The notes under the pieces are model-generated. The model saw only the letters and a list, made by a program, of their open reading frames with translations. It was not told the DNA's origin and made no database searches. From a bacterium (GTDB lineage Bacteria; Patescibacteriota; Minisyncoccia; UBA6257; 2-01-FULL-56-20), in assembly GCA_027310965.1 (NCBI GenBank), contig DAICZW010000001.1, forward strand, positions 37,236 to 101,235: a stretch of 64,000 bases of DNA. Direction: 5' to 3'. Below are positions 29,350 through 34,688 of this stretch, one piece after another. The position numbers were made by a program, and so were the translations under genes. The first letter of the stretch is position 1, and every line of letters starts with the position of its first letter.

Positions 29350-29440
29350 AAACATTTTTTGTCGTCCCCGCGGAGGCGGGGATCCGCGCTTTAAGAAATT
29401 AAAATTGGAAGCACAGGTTTCCGCCTTCGCCGGAATGACA
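29350..29440. repeat. REP-like palindromic element in the atpF-atpH spacer
   Basis: TTGTCGTCCCCGCGGAGGCGGGGATCCGCGCTTTAAG ... GCCTTCGCCGGAATGACAGAGGG. Confidence 0.6.
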
Positions 29441-29478
29441 GAGGGAGCGGATTTTCATTTTGAACGAACCATTATAGT

Positions 29479-29856
29479 ATGAAATATCCCGTATTATTTT
29501 ACGCAAAAGCGCTTGCCATGGCGGTTGCCGAGGCGGGGAAAAGCGACGCCGTCGCGAAAAATTTTCTTGCATTGGTGCGCAGGAACGGAGACGGACGATA
29601 CCTGCCGAAGATCGTGCGGGAAAGCGAACGCCTGATGCGCAAACAGCACGGCGTGCGGGAGATAACAGTGGCGTCGGCGCGCGGACTCAAACAGCCGCCG
29701 CGGGCATTGCTCAAAAATTTTGCAAAACCTGAAGATGAAGTTTATGGTGTCATCATGCCGGAGCTTGTCGCGGGAGTGAAGATTATGGTGGACGGCGAGG
29801 CGCAATTCGACGGATCGCTGAAAGGGAAAATAGACAGGATGTTCAAAAATATATAA
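29479..29856 (+). CDS. atpH: F0F1 ATP synthase subunit delta (short, 125 aa)
   Basis: Position in the operon and an OSCP-like C-terminal region. The N-terminal domain is shortened. Confidence 0.6.
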   Translation: MKYPVLFYAKALAMAVAEAGKSDAVAKNFLALVRRNGDGRYLPKIVRESERLMRKQHGVREITVASARGLKQPPRALLKNFAKPEDEVYGVIMPELVAGVKIMVDGEAQFDGSLKGKIDRMFKNI

Positions 29857-29879
29857 GCTAAGAAACGATGCCATTCTCA

Positions 29880-29995
29880 TGGTGTCGTCCTCGCCCCTCG
29901 AAAACTCGGGAGGAACTCCGGCGGGGATTCACACTTTAAGAAATAAAGACTGAAAGCATGGGTCGTCCGCCTTCGCGGACGATGACAGAAGGGAT
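29880..29995. repeat. REP-like palindromic element in the atpH-atpA spacer
   Basis: GTGTCGTCCTCGCCCCTCG...GGGTCGTCCGCCTTCGCGGACGATGACAGAAGGG. Confidence 0.6.
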
Positions 29996-30016
29996 AGTTG
30001 ATGAAATATTAAAATT

Positions 30017-31540
30017 ATGAGTTACGAAATCATAGAAAAACTGAAAAAAGAGATAGAGGGTTTCAAGGACGATCCGAAGTGGGAGGAATTCGGGCGCGTG
30101 ATCGAGGTTGGCGACGGCATCGTGAAGATCGTCGGTTTGCGGAACGCCGTGAGTCAGGAGATTTTAAAAATACAAACGCCGCGCGGCGAGCGTACGGCGC
30201 TGGCGCTGAATCTTGAAGAAGAATCGATCGGCGCGCTTGTACTCGACGATTTTCTTGCGGTCGAGGTCGGCAATGAAGTAAAACGTACCGGCGATGTCTT
30301 GTCCATTCCGGTCGGCGAGGAACTTATCGGCCGCGTCGTTGATCCGCTGGGAAATCCTTTGGACGGCAAAGGGCCGATTTTCACGAAAACAAAACCGCAG
30401 TTCAATCCGCTTGAAGCGCGCGCGCCGTCGGTTCTGGAGCGTGAATCGGTCACGACGCCGCTGCATACGGGGCTGAAGGCGATCGATGCCATCATTCCCA
30501 TCGGCCGCGGACAGCGCGAACTTATCATCGGCGACCGGCAGGTCGGGAAAACGGCGATCGCGATCGATGCTATCATCAACCAGGCGCAGGAAACCGGAAA
30601 AAAGAAGCCGGTCTGCATTTATGTCGCCATCGGCCAGAAGGAATCCAAGGTCGTGAAGACCGCGGAGACCCTGAAAAAATTCGGCGCGTTCGAATACAGT
30701 ATTATCGTTTCGGCGCCGGCATCGTCGCCCGCGGCAATGTGGTATCTCGCGCCGTATGCGGGCTGCGCGATAGGGGAATATTTCCGCGATAAAGGGCAGG
30801 ACGCGCTGATTGTTTACGACGACCTTTCGAAACATGCGTGGGCGTACCGGCAGATCTCGCTGCTTCTGCGCCGGCCGCCGGGCCGCGAAGCGTATCCGGG
30901 CGATATTTTTTATCTCCATTCCCGTTTATTGGAACGCGCCGCGAGACTTTCAAAAGAAAAAGGCGGCGGGTCGCTGACGGCATTGCCGATCGTGGAGACC
31001 CAGCTCGGCGACGTGACGGCGTACGTTCCGACGAACATCATTTCCATAACCGACGGGCAGATTTATCTCGAATCGGATCTTTTCAACCAGGGATTGCGGC
31101 CAGCGCTGAATGTCGGCATTTCCGTTTCACGCGTCGGTTCGGCCGCGCAGACGAAGGCGATGAAAAAAGTCGCCGGAAAATTGCGGCTCTCGCTCGCGCA
31201 GTTCCGCGAATTGCAGGCATTCGTGCAGTTCGCGACGGATGTGGATGATGCGACGAAGAAAAAGATCCTCCAGGGGCAGAAGATCAACGAGATTCTGAAG
31301 CAGGAAGACCTTGCGCCGTTGCCGTTCGAGAAACAGGTGTGCGTTTTTTACGCGGTGCTCAATGGTTATTTCGAGCATATCGCCGTGGAAAACATAAAAG
31401 AGACCGAAAACCGCTTACTCGAATACCTCGGAGAGTTTCACGAAGCCGATGTTTTGAAGCCGATCCGCGAGACCGGCGAATTCACGGAACAAGTCGAAAC
31501 CAAATTAAAAGAAGTGATAGGAAAATTCTTGGGAAAGTAA
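30017..31540 (+). CDS. atpA: F0F1 ATP synthase subunit alpha
   Basis: [19 protein letters not shown]-loop and [29 protein letters not shown]. Confidence 0.95.
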
Positions 31541-32684: not shown

Positions 32685-32780
32685 TGCAATACCAATTTTC
32701 TTTTCTGTCATCGTCAGCGGAGGCGGACGATGACAGAAAATAAGCGAATAACAGAAGGAATTCAACTTATTATAATTATT

Positions 32781-34199
32781 ATGAAAACAGGAAAAATAAT
32801 AAAAATCATCGGGCCGGTGGTGGATGTCGATTTCGGAGAGAATACGGCGCTGCCGCCTATTTATCATGCTTTAAAAATAAAAACGAAAGACCGTACTGTT
32901 ATTTTCGAGGTTATGAAGCATTTGGAGCCGGGCAAAGTGCGCGCAATCGCGCTCGATTCAACCGACGGATTGAGCCGCGGCATGGCAATCGAAGATATGG
33001 GGAAGATGATCGAGGTGCCGGTGGGAGAGCGGGTGCTGGGGCATATTTTCGATGTCGTCGGAAACTGTCTGGATGCTCCGGAAGAATTTCCGTCTTCATC
33101 AAAAAGCGAACCCGTCCACGGCGTACCGGCTTCGGATGGAAAAAAATTTTTGCCGATCCACCGTGATGCGCCGACCTTTACCGAGCAATCCACGAAAACC
33201 GAAGTTTTCGAAACGGGTATTAAAGTCATCGATCTTATCTGCCCGTTCATCAAGGGCGGCAAGGTCGGTCTTTTCGGCGGCGCGGGCGTGGGGAAAACCG
33301 TGCTTTTGCAGGAGCTCATCCATAACGTCGCGGAAGTCGGCGGCGGCGTTTCGGTCTTTGCCGGCGTCGGCGAACGTTCGCGCGAAGGGAACGATCTTTA
33401 TAATGAAATGAAGGATTCGGGCGTCATCGGAAAGACCGCGCTCGTGTTCGGCCAGATGAATGAAGTGCCGGGCGCCCGCGCGCGCGTGGCGCTGTCCGCG
33501 CTCACGATGGCGGAATATTTCCGCGACGAGGAAGGGAAGAACACGCTGCTTTTCATCGACAATATTTTCCGCTTTTCGCAGGCGGGCGCCGAAGTTTCGA
33601 CGCTTTTGGGCAGGATGCCTTCGGCCGTGGGATATCAGCCGACTCTTGCGTCCGAGATGGCGGAGCTTCAGGAGCGGATCACGTCGACCACGAAAGGTTC
33701 CATCACGTCCGTGCAGGCGGTTTATGTTCCGGCCGACGATATCACGGATCCCGCGCCCGCGACGACATTCAGCCACCTTGATTCCACGGTTGTTCTTTCG
33801 CGCGCATTGACCGAGATCGGCATTTATCCGGCGGTGGATCCCTTGTCGTCCAATTCGAGCGCGCTCGATCCGAAGATCGTCGGCCGCGAGCATTACGACG
33901 TCGCGCGCGAAGTGCAGCAGATATTGCAGCGCCATAAAGAGCTTCAGGATATCATCGCGATCCTTGGTATCGAGGAACTGTCGGATGCCGACCGGAAGAC
34001 CGTCGACCGCGCCCGCAAGATCCAGCGCTTCCTTTCCCAGCCGTTTGCGGTCGCGGAACCGTTCACCGGCCGTCCCGGAAAATATGTTCCGCTCAAAGAC
34101 ACTATAAAAAGTTTCCGCGAGATTTTGGACGGCAAATATGACGACAAGCCGGAAGAGGATTTCTATCTGAAGGGCGGGATAGAGGAAGTGGGGAGCTGA
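32781..34199 (+). CDS. atpD: F0F1 ATP synthase subunit beta
   Basis: [16 protein letters not shown]-loop and DELSDAD (DELSEED-like) motif. The start was moved to [16 protein letters not shown]. Confidence 0.95.
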
Positions 34200-34202
34200 T
34201 TC

Positions 34203-34345
34203 CTGCATTCTCTGTCGTCCTCGCCCTATGGAGTGGCGGCTTCGCCTACTCCATAGGGCGAGGATCTACGCTTGAAACGTATAATACAAAAAGCAGAATG
34301 GAGAAAGAGAAGATGGAAGCATGGATCCTCGACCGGGGCGAGGAC
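34203..34345. repeat. REP-like palindromic element pair in the atpD-atpC spacer
   Basis: TCTGTCGTCCTCGCCCTATGGAGTGGCGGCTTCGCCTACTCCATAGGGCGAGGATC ... GGATCCTCGACCGGGGCGAGGACGACGG. Confidence 0.65.
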
Positions 34346-34439
34346 GACGGAAAAAGAATTTTAATTTTTAATCGCTAATAACTTTTCACTTTTCACTATT
34401 AACTTCTTCGCGCTTTTCACTAATAACTTTTCACTTCTC

Positions 34440-34688
34440 ATGACTCTCGGCGTTTATTCATTGGAAAAAGTCCTCTATCGCGGCGAGGCGGTTTCGGTGA
34501 ATTGCGCGACCGCGATGGGGGAAATCACGATCCTCGACCATCACCAGCAAATGATTTCCATTTTAAAAAAAGGCGTGATGAAAATAGTTGACAATAATGG
34601 TAAAGAGCATTATATTAATGTCAGCTCTGGTTTCCTGGAAGTGGGTTCCGGGAACGAAATTAAAATTTTAATAGAAGAGGTATTGTAA
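34440..34688 (+). CDS. atpC: F0F1 ATP synthase subunit epsilon (N-terminal beta-sandwich domain only, 82 aa)
   Basis: SLEKVLYRGEAVSVNCATAMGEITILDHHQQMISILKKGVMKI. The C-terminal helical hairpin is absent. Confidence 0.8.
   Translation: MTLGVYSLEKVLYRGEAVSVNCATAMGEITILDHHQQMISILKKGVMKIVDNNGKEHYINVSSGFLEVGSGNEIKILIEEVL

Follow-up and report, generated by a model that had tools for sequence, protein, structure and literature searches.

Why should nearly every spacer of an ATP synthase operon hold a stable hairpin? The question is raised by a 64,000-nucleotide stretch of contig DAICZW010000001.1 (assembly GCA_027310965.1, positions 37,236 to 101,235; hereafter the window) from a bacterium of the Patescibacteriota, in which a complete F-type operon, atpB-E-F-H-A-G-D-C, lies on the + strand (Pfam). 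Its spacers measure 51 (B-E), 124 (E-F), 129 (F-H), 160 (H-A), 208 (A-G), 96 (G-D) and 240 nt (D-C), and six of the seven, all except that between atpB and atpE, hold one palindromic unit or an inverted pair. An earlier reading made from the letters alone (hereafter the sequence-only reading) had given the last five lengths exactly, had placed a repeat in each of those five spacers, which is confirmed here, and had proposed that the hairpins set the 1:3:3:1:10 stoichiometry of the subunits; the unit at 28804-28839, between atpE and atpF, had been missed. The analysis described below leads to a different answer. The atp hairpins are likely to be selfish repetitive extragenic palindromes (REPs) of the CGTC/TGTC-tagged type that have spread in this lineage, with effects on RNA incidental, and a design for subunit stoichiometry is not supported.

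A dispersed family of tagged hairpins

The unit reads cTGTC-GTCCCCGC-GRAG-GCGGGGAT-CCA-TGCTT, with family consensus CTGTCGTCCCCGCGAAGGCGGGGATCCATGCTT, and has an unpaired terminal TGTC/CGTC at one end of its hairpin. In an alignment of 23 units (A1; consensus nnCTGTCGTCC...) TGTC abuts the 8-bp stem and CGTC lies one register in, while solo units begin CTGTCAT.... The stem is G+C-rich (GTCCCCGC/GCGGGGAT) with T-A as its second pair, and right-hand and solo units have AT...AT at this end (TGTC-AT-TCCGGC..). The loop is GAAG or GGAG in all 23 aligned units and CTAAA, CCAAG or CTTC in partner units, the exceptions being five window copies with nested insertions of 24-39 nt. The tail is CC(A/G) in 22 of the 23, followed by TGCTT. 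Most often two units form an inverted pair of 90-150 bp with the TGTC ends outside (head-to-head, HH), separated by an A/T-rich spacer of 15-60 nt with complementary ends CCAYGCTT / AAGCRTGG. Seven HH dimers or clusters occur in the window and at least nine in other metagenome-assembled genomes (MAGs), and the partner units of one dimer are often unlike each other, giving heterodimers. Short solo palindromes tagged on both sides (13924, 26071 and 32705) look like collapsed dimers. A T-run precedes and an A-run follows each element on both strands (TTTTCTGTC...GACAGAAAA).

Is the hairpin itself maintained? Within the stem, 96% of alignment cells are paired, six of the seven stem pairs show compensatory changes and none of 500 shuffles did as well; the hairpin is therefore selected for pairing. 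Predicted RNA folds of the dimers are one long hairpin or a four-way junction, with energies from -41 to -73 kcal/mol and z-scores of -4.5 to -9 for most elements, the atpH-atpA dimer being weaker (z -2.5). When dimer stems are read from left to right, G.U pairs outnumber A.C mismatches by 29 to 8, and the T or C state of the right tag follows orientation to the genes (T in 7/7 sense copies, C in 3/4 antisense copies, by eye in a small sample). Both observations are equally compatible with selection at the RNA level and with a transcription-linked C-to-T bias.

Some loops hold further palindromes. A nested second palindrome, CCTRTGGAG-(tip hairpin)-CTCCATAGG, lies in the loops of three units (34225-34257, 42882-42914 and 48725-48757), two of which are near-identical copies. 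The sequence-only reading had noticed this near-identical pair but gave its length as 64 bp; the similarity in fact extends over 84 nt at 93% identity (42860-42943 and 48703-48786). Since the nested variant is present in three copies, two of them near-identical, such variants are evidently copied and have not arisen independently. The loop of unit 29883-29937 holds an insertion different from this module, and insertions seem to favor REP loops.

Detection rests on covariance models, because a generic scan for a tag, an 8-bp stem and a 4-5 nt loop proved insensitive and unspecific (15 matches against 5.6 in shuffles, only four of the 15 being family members). The half-unit model R2, rebuilt from 51 matches, finds 17 half-units with E<0.01 in the window; weak and hand-found copies bring this to about 22 half-units at 14 loci, approximately 2% of the sequence. 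The 25-mer given in the sequence-only reading has five window matches at three or fewer mismatches against 0 expected, GCGAGGATCCATGCTT has 12 against 0.9, and the degenerate 31-mer GYCGTCYYYGCGRAGRSGRRGRTCCRYGCTT has six exact matches against 0. The repeat family is real and far above chance level, and it is reasonable to call its density unusual for a small genome. The copies outside the operon that had been named from the letters were also found, at 4322, 13924, 22845, 42865 and 48631, with that at 26071 recognized by eye and that at 35432 weak.

Units are not spread evenly. They occur in 8 of 36 spacers between two + strand genes, 2 of 12 between two - strand genes, 2 of 7 convergent and 1 of 7 divergent-looking spacers of the window, a distribution that agrees with that reported for REPs. 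The atp operon is enriched (units in 6/7 atp spacers and 7/55 other window spacers; Fisher p = 1.7e-4, a post hoc comparison). That its spacers are unusually long, as had been claimed, holds against the atp operons of relatives but not against the rest of the window (median 129 versus 134 nt). Beyond the window, the 10 kb before its start add two loci, a dimer between mreB and mreC and a unit flanked by prfA and a class II tRNA synthetase gene, and the 10 kb past its end hold no further unit.

Membership of the CGTC-tagged REPs and occurrence in other genomes

To which class do these repeats belong? The CGTC-tagged REP superfamily (Di Nocera, De Gregorio & Rocco 2013, BMC Genomics 14:522; PMC3733652) is defined by an unpaired CGTC tag, often TGTC or CCTC, a stem of 8-9 bp whose first two pairs are A-T, a loop of 4-5 nt and an unpaired 3-nt tail that is mostly CCA. 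HH dimers predominate, with spacers of 20-100 bp and, in some, complementary ends; the repeats lie between co-directional or convergent open reading frames (ORFs), have intragenic copies and are associated with no transposase gene, and no mobilizing enzyme is known for any of them (PMC3733652). Since tag, stem length, loop, tail, dimer and location match this definition, with a less clean fit only at the first stem pair, which is G.T in the commonest unit and A-T in partner and solo units, and copies are likewise dispersed and in part intragenic (about 22 half-units at 14 window loci; valS and rnhB), the repeats are, judged by sequence, a CGTC/TGTC-tagged REP family organized mostly as HH dimers. 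The earlier label “REP-like” was right and is sharpened by this assignment.

The CGTC-1 family, which includes Neisseria dRS3 and Rickettsia conorii RPE-6 (PMC3733652), shares with the window repeats the tag, 8-bp stem, 4-nt loop, CCA tail, HH dimers, gene-orientation bias and in-frame copies. Here, in contrast, the host belongs to the Candidate Phyla Radiation (CPR), the first stem pair is G.T in the commonest unit, many loops contain nested palindromes of 24-39 nt, and one housekeeping operon is filled, a situation undescribed in the 2013 survey, which covered five phyla and no CPR genome (PMC3733652). A 2025 survey is silent on Patescibacteria (PMC12306157), and a literature search found no paper on REPs or MITEs (transposable elements of the miniature inverted-repeat type) in Patescibacteria. 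The dRS3 consensus is ATTCCC-N8-GGGAAT (PMC1797815); the core here, GTCCCC-N8-GGGGAT, departs from it at the first base and at one stem position, where the change is compensated. The mosaic elements of Neisseria (NIMEs; arrays of dRS3 and RS) share the 20-bp core (A/G)T(T/C)CCC-N8-GGG(A/G)AT and the alternation of G+C hairpins with A/T-rich spacers. They differ in forming long arrays beside surface-protein genes and in acting as prophage integration sites, whereas the window has isolated dimers in housekeeping operons, with neither arrays nor prophage.

Similar comparisons can be made with other palindromic repeats. REPINs and RAYT transposases, reportedly described by Bertels and Rainey in 2011, are said to involve the GTAG-type REP doublets of Pseudomonas and Enterobacteria. 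Like these, the window elements consist of two inverted REPs and a spacer, that is, a hairpin-forming, non-autonomous replicating unit with dispersed copies and no target duplication; the tag is GTAG there and TGTC/CGTC here, and no conserved GTAG was found flanking the units. E. coli REPs stabilize upstream mRNA, as in malE-malF. The E. coli REPs and bacterial interspersed mosaic elements (BIMEs) resemble the atp copies in being intercistronic within an operon, where their hairpins can protect upstream mRNA and shift cistron expression, but are unrelated in sequence and number one or a few per operon rather than occupying nearly every spacer. Rickettsia palindromic elements (RPEs) also lie in frame within essential genes, as here in valS and, in another MAG, rnhB, although RPE-1 units are about 100-150 bp long compared with half units of about 40 nt within genes here, and most copies here are intergenic.

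Three other candidates were rejected. A DDE-type MITE such as Correia would leave a direct target-site duplication, and the flanks of 14 dimers contain no direct repeat, being instead inverted complements (..TTCT / AGAA..). CRISPR-like solo repeats were considered because the unit is similar in shape to type I-E repeats, but the copies are inverted pairs and not direct arrays. Integron attC sites are excluded by the lack of GTTRRRY core sites and of cassette structure. No Rfam family is present at the elements at gathering score; at E<1 the only matches are miRNA noise and a sub-threshold L2-Alphaproteobacteria ribosomal protein leader, the latter on the left REP unit at 31549-31604 (E=0.058; 21.3 bits, where the gathering score is 37.8).

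How far does the family extend? A scan of one genome per species for exact matches places the 31-mer in 19 contigs of about nine MAGs (G+C 41-56%). Its hosts are Paceibacteria/Parcubacteria together with two MAGs carrying the label Saccharibacteria and two lake MAGs labelled Legionella/Legionellaceae; viral contigs scanned for it gave no match. In the Legionella contigs (41-44% G+C; L005, L006, L012 and L021) an identical 31-mer, GTCGTCCCCGCGAAGGCGGGGATCCATGCTT, lies in an intergenic repeat of 105-170 bp with no transposase nearby, which points to a family that crosses phyla or else to mis-binning of these contigs. Sites in other genomes include hrcA-grpE spacers and positions upstream of dnaB, recO, a prepilin peptidase gene and a UbiA-family gene. 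Orientation to the flanking genes is mixed there (about 10 sense and four antisense), whereas the window dimers are all sense.

Copies also occur within genes, as half units only, of about 40 nt and 14 residues. The valS ORF of the window (6835-9129; class I tRNA synthetase by Pfam) contains one, and eight homologs lack about 20 residues exactly at this site, which lies in a loop of the protein. In a Paceibacterota MAG (L014) the RNase HII gene (rnhB, 4251-4877) has an in-frame unit at 4747-4789 that gives the peptide VVPAKAGIHA, and the units in the two genes both encode ...VPAKA(G/E)I....

The atp operons of relatives and the competing explanations

If the hairpins regulate ATP synthase, they should be found at the same junctions in relatives. 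The sequence-only reading had suggested a comparison with related atp operons that lack the repeats. In L009, a MAG of the Parcubacteria with an AtpA 90% identical to that of the window, the corresponding junctions measure 31 (E-F), -4 (F-H, an overlap), 239 (H-A), 8 (A-G) and 121 nt (G-D), and there is no element at E-F, F-H or A-G. The L009 H-A dimer is the ortholog of that in the window, matching it in right-unit subtype and in sequence down to the start codon, and the G-D junction has a different hairpin ending ...GGAATGACA. Elements are thus shared at only two of five comparable junctions, which is not the pattern of a conserved cis-regulatory RNA, and their absence from the other three implies that three of the six window elements arrived after the lineages split. 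A further 80 atp loci of metagenomic origin, more distant than L009 (693 kb; AtpA 53-76% identical), gave no significant model match, and most of their A-G and G-D spacers are only a few nt long. Since the E-F, F-H and A-G elements are missing in L009 and the 80 loci have none, these repeats would be lineage-specific insertions, and most atp repeats are evidently recent arrivals rather than conserved operon regulators. The family is also not specific to atp genes, being found in mraZ-rsmH, mreB-mreC and hrcA-grpE spacers, upstream of dnaB and recO and within valS and rnhB.

Two observations from this comparison are worth recording for themselves. The composition of the window and L009 has shifted greatly between close relatives despite the 90% AtpA identity: fourfold sites of atpA are 47% identical, with a G+C content at these sites of 82% in the window (30017-31540) and 42% in L009 (4024-5544). 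Some of the distant CPR-like atp operons (L027, L030, L035 and others) have unrelated palindromes in their spacers, for example hairpins of the type TGTCATTGCGAG...CTCGCAATGACA, with the same TGTCAT/ATGACA ends. The shared ends hint at a wider superfamily, and the window genome is not alone in having an atp operon colonized by palindromic repeats.

Could the hairpins nevertheless be functional intercistronic RNA elements? As 3'-exonuclease barriers, RNase III/E sites or 5' stabilizers they might set the stoichiometry of the synthase through cistron half-lives. A single transcription unit with one strong terminator (35353-35387) encloses them, all atp dimers have one orientation, most predicted RNA folds are very stable, G.U is preferred over A.C in the dimer stems, conservation of the H-A dimer stands out from a neutral background that is saturated, and E. 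coli REPs are known to stabilize upstream mRNA (malE-malF; discussed in PMC3733652). On the other hand, three of the six atp elements are missing in L009, where the genes overlap or abut, the 80 other loci have no copy, orientation elsewhere is mixed, and the family occupies unrelated spacers and coding sequences. Placement also bears no relation to the wanted ratios; behind the c-subunit gene there is a single terminator-like hairpin (28759-28789), which falls outside the family and folds weakly (z -0.8). We consider this explanation unlikely, and the same comparisons lend no support to the proposal that the repeats set subunit ratios.

G+C-rich hairpins in intergenic positions might also act as intrinsic terminators or attenuators within the atp operon. 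However, the elements have their T-run on the 5' side and their A-run on the 3' side, the reverse of a terminator, which argues that they are not terminators, and a terminator scan recovers the terminator at 35353 but no unit with a proper T-tail. This reading is extremely improbable.

A further possibility is that some copies have been exapted as promoter parts, with ATGACA serving as the -35 box of a leaderless transcript of atpA and perhaps of atpD. This would explain the retention of the H-A dimer. In the window its right tag is part of the arrangement ATGACA-17 nt-AATATT-6 nt-ATG of atpA (promoter-like match 29982-30010), L009 has ATGACA-16 nt-TATATT-6 nt-ATG, and atpD is preceded by ATAACA-17-TATAAT-4-ATG. 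A TATAAT-like box ends 3-12 nt before the ATG in 16 of 39 genes, with a peak at 6 nt, and an SD-like (Shine-Dalgarno) sequence is present in five of 39. Yet promoter-like matches in the region number 11 against 6.5 +/- 2.5 in shuffles, which is not significant, and among the other copies a correctly spaced -10 box is mostly lacking or the distance to the ATG is only 10-15 nt. The idea would account for one or two copies at most, not for the family, and we judge exaptation of this kind improbable. The TATAAT-like boxes deserve mention on their own account: at 39 confident gene starts the 16 occurrences (e.g., 15992, 19273, 43598(-), 53332 and 56811) compare with 1.5 +/- 1.2 at random positions, which suggests that leaderless transcripts may be widespread in this Parcubacteria genome.

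The elements might instead be kept as DNA-level sites for a recombinase or integrase, or for gyrase or nucleoid-protein binding, in the service of chromosome functions. Models are available in Neisseria dRS3, the target of the Nf prophage transposase, and in E. coli BIMEs, which bind gyrase and nucleoid proteins. The core is near the dRS3 consensus, with ATTCCC...GGGAAC variants in L019, the sequence itself is conserved across phyla beyond what pairing requires, and unit loops have repeatedly received further palindromes. No recombinase, IS110-type element or prophage lies beside any copy in the window or the fetched loci, however, and NIME-like arrays are lacking. A chromosomal role of this sort is quite doubtful.

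How, then, would selfish CGTC/TGTC-tagged REPs have come to fill the operon? The family most probably consists of non-autonomous, copy-spreading DNA. Without target-site duplication it inserts into transcribed spacers whose flanking genes are co-directional or convergent, on occasion also in frame where a protein loop tolerates it, and nearly every atp spacer has been filled in this lineage. A trans-acting, sequence-specific protein would recognize the folded single strand and copy or maintain it, as RAYTs do for GTAG REPs, and such recognition would explain the near-constant 31-mer in genomes of 41-56% G+C. Because the atp copies lie inside a transcription unit with one strong terminator at its end, they are almost certainly co-transcribed, and very stable RNA hairpins are predicted to form. 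An effect of these on mRNA decay, processing or translation is plausible, but would be a side effect and not the reason for their presence.

Several observations weigh against selfish spread. The concentration of units in the atp operon is not explained by purely random insertion. In the commonest unit the stem opens with a G.T pair, where published CGTC families have A-T. Sibling MAG contigs (GCA_027308955.1 and siblings) are identical to the window, giving no within-species presence/absence polymorphism and no sign of ongoing mobility there, although their ends inside elements (29980-30000, 34260 in the D-C dimer, and near 4400) are in keeping with a multi-copy repeat. A search for a transposase or RAYT in the window, in 20 kb of additional flank and in the fetched loci (tblastn, E<1, with an IS200 TnpA query, a weak test) gave nothing, the genes between units being grpE, mreB and similar, and as only about 84 kb of the genome was covered, a single-copy transposase gene could be missed. 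Finally, the stems of the H-A right unit and its flank up to the tag are identical at 34 of 34 positions between the window and L009. Conservation of this dimer beyond that of neutral sites could be due to constraint, to homogenization among copies or to re-insertion.

Domestication is a further idea for a lineage in which SD sites are absent from most genes and many look leaderless. REP dimers could have been recruited as cistron boundaries, each acting as a structured insulator or processing site with a G-poor, unstructured tract behind it and some also carrying the ATGACA -35 box, a suggestion to which we attach little credence. That a translationally coupled operon resembling that of L009 was in this way turned into separately initiated cistrons, with the 31-mer conserved through one protein partner, is similarly speculative.

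Copies and neighboring features, and what they mean

Coordinates of the repeats and of the atp terminator are collected in Table 1.

Table 1. REP elements of the window and the predicted terminator of the atp unit (R2, bit scores of the half-unit covariance model; all atp dimers share their orientation relative to transcription).
Feature	Coordinates	Strand	Details
REP HH homodimer, upstream of hsp20 gene	4322..4442	+	R2 50.7, 54.2 bits; inverted repeat I3; fold z -5.9
REP unit in frame inside valS	7909..7942	-	R2 51.6 bits; encodes ...DAVPAKAEIRAFNEK...
Solo short REP hairpin	13924..13950	+	R2 27.8 bits, E=2.5e-4; palindrome I5
REP dimer, mraZ-rsmH spacer	22845..22925	+	R2 49.8 bits; right unit degenerate; flanked by Pfam MraZ, Methyltransf_5
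Solo palindrome between penicillin-binding protein gene and murE	26071..26103	.	CTGTCATCATCCGGC-CAAG-CCGGACAATGACAG; family termini; read by eye
Single REP unit, atpE-atpF	28804..28839	-	GAAGCGCGG-GTCGTCCGC-TTTC-GCGGACGA-TAACAG; tag end toward atpF; 9-bp hairpin in RNA fold; R2 28.1 bits, E=2e-4
REP HH dimer, atpF-atpH	29360..29441	+	units 29360-29392 (+), 29407-29441 (-); R2 59.5, 43.9 bits; fold -44.1 kcal/mol, z -6.6
REP HH dimer, atpH-atpA	29883..29988	+	units 29883-29937, 29953-29988; R2 31.1, 48.6 bits; 24-nt insertion in left-unit loop
REP HH dimer, atpA-atpG	31546..31677	+	units 31546-31579 (R2 50.4 bits), 31619-31677 (17.7 bits, E=0.055); right unit degenerate with inserted palindrome; fold -51.7 kcal/mol, z -4.5
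Short solo palindrome, atpG-atpD	32705..32736	.	CTGTCATCGTCAGC-GGAG-GCGGACGATGACAG; perfect 13-bp palindrome with family termini, tags both sides; R2 16.4 bits, E=0.11; fold -26.5 kcal/mol, z -9.0; looks like collapsed dimer
REP HH dimer, atpD-atpC	34212..34350	+	units 34212-34273, 34315-34350; R2 39.8, 40.9 bits; nested palindrome 34225-34257 in left-unit loop; fold -73.0 kcal/mol, z -8.1
Predicted intrinsic terminator ending atp transcription unit	35353..35387	+	9-bp G+C stem, then T-run; fold z -6.8; outside repeat family
Weak copy	35432-35459		E=0.36
Single REP unit, nested palindrome	42865..42938	-	R2 48.9 bits; direct repeat family D11; 93% identical to 48708-48780
3-unit REP cluster	48631..48819	+	48631-48663 (+), 48708-48780 (-), 48783-48819 (-); R2 45.3, 52.0, 21.8 bits

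The hairpin at 13924-13950 lies just upstream of a perfect terminator-like palindrome (13957-13994), the palindrome at 26071-26103 was not detected by the covariance models, and the three-unit cluster is located between convergent Nramp and HtrA-like genes (Pfam). At 55143-55170, TTTTTCTGTC-GGATCTCGTGCTT joins tag directly to tail (R2 18 bits, E=0.047) and looks like a REP unit that has lost its hairpin.

Within and beside the atp operon, the terminator at 35353-35387 is the sole strong intrinsic terminator of the unit and marks the limit of co-transcription. Ahead of it, 10 nt past atpC, is a 194-aa ORF without Pfam match (34699-35283) preceded by the SD sequence AAGGAGG, a good one of which the window has few. 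The terminator-like hairpin at 28759-28789, directly 3' of atpE, has a TTTTCT tail and is absent in L009. Two tracts between a REP dimer and the next start codon (34357-34439 and 31685-31748) are G-poor and unstructured (dG 0 and -1.1 kcal/mol), with repeated CTTTTCAC motifs, four copies of which stand ahead of atpC; they may be unstructured landing sites for SD-less initiation. Adjoining the operon on the - strand is a module resembling Complex I or a membrane-bound hydrogenase (35578-42829), with a fused 30-kDa/49-kDa subunit, two Proton_antipo_M, NADHdh, Oxidored_q2 and Oxidored_q6 domains. Respiratory-type modules of this sort are probably uncommon in CPR genomes.

Two further repeats were observed in the window. 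A different family of 84-138 nt, 81-88% identical and ending TTTTGAGACGGGTTCT, occurs at 2934-3017, 20729-20866 and 62763-62900; the TTTTGAGACGGGTTCT motif is also found at 43766-43806 and upstream of 62008, precedes a tRNA-Asp and the start of a UDG gene (uracil-DNA glycosylase), and may be a module associated with promoters. At 61019-61201 a repeat of 58-65 nt stands three times in tandem, every copy containing a short hairpin (GAGGGAC...GTCCCTC), and one related copy is found 10 kb away at 50996-51055.

What do these repeats mean for the organism and for the family? Genomes of the CPR are about 1 Mb in size and usually viewed as streamlined and repeat-poor. The CGTC-tagged REP superfamily is now extended to this radiation, and a core bioenergetic operon can evidently be filled by such repeats without being destroyed. 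The repeats have practical consequences as well, since they break MAG assemblies and give rise to false ORFs and to inserted peptides such as ...VPAKAGI... and ...DPRLRGDD.... For the atp operon they chiefly urge caution, in that hairpins between cistrons, however striking, may have no regulatory role. Sister genomes rich and poor in REPs, of about 1000 genes each (that of the window against relatives like L009), would be a favorable place in which to find the enzyme that mobilizes CGTC REPs, by presence and absence, and if the dimers have indeed been domesticated as cistron boundaries, the tiny CPR gene set could make a conserved protein partner identifiable.

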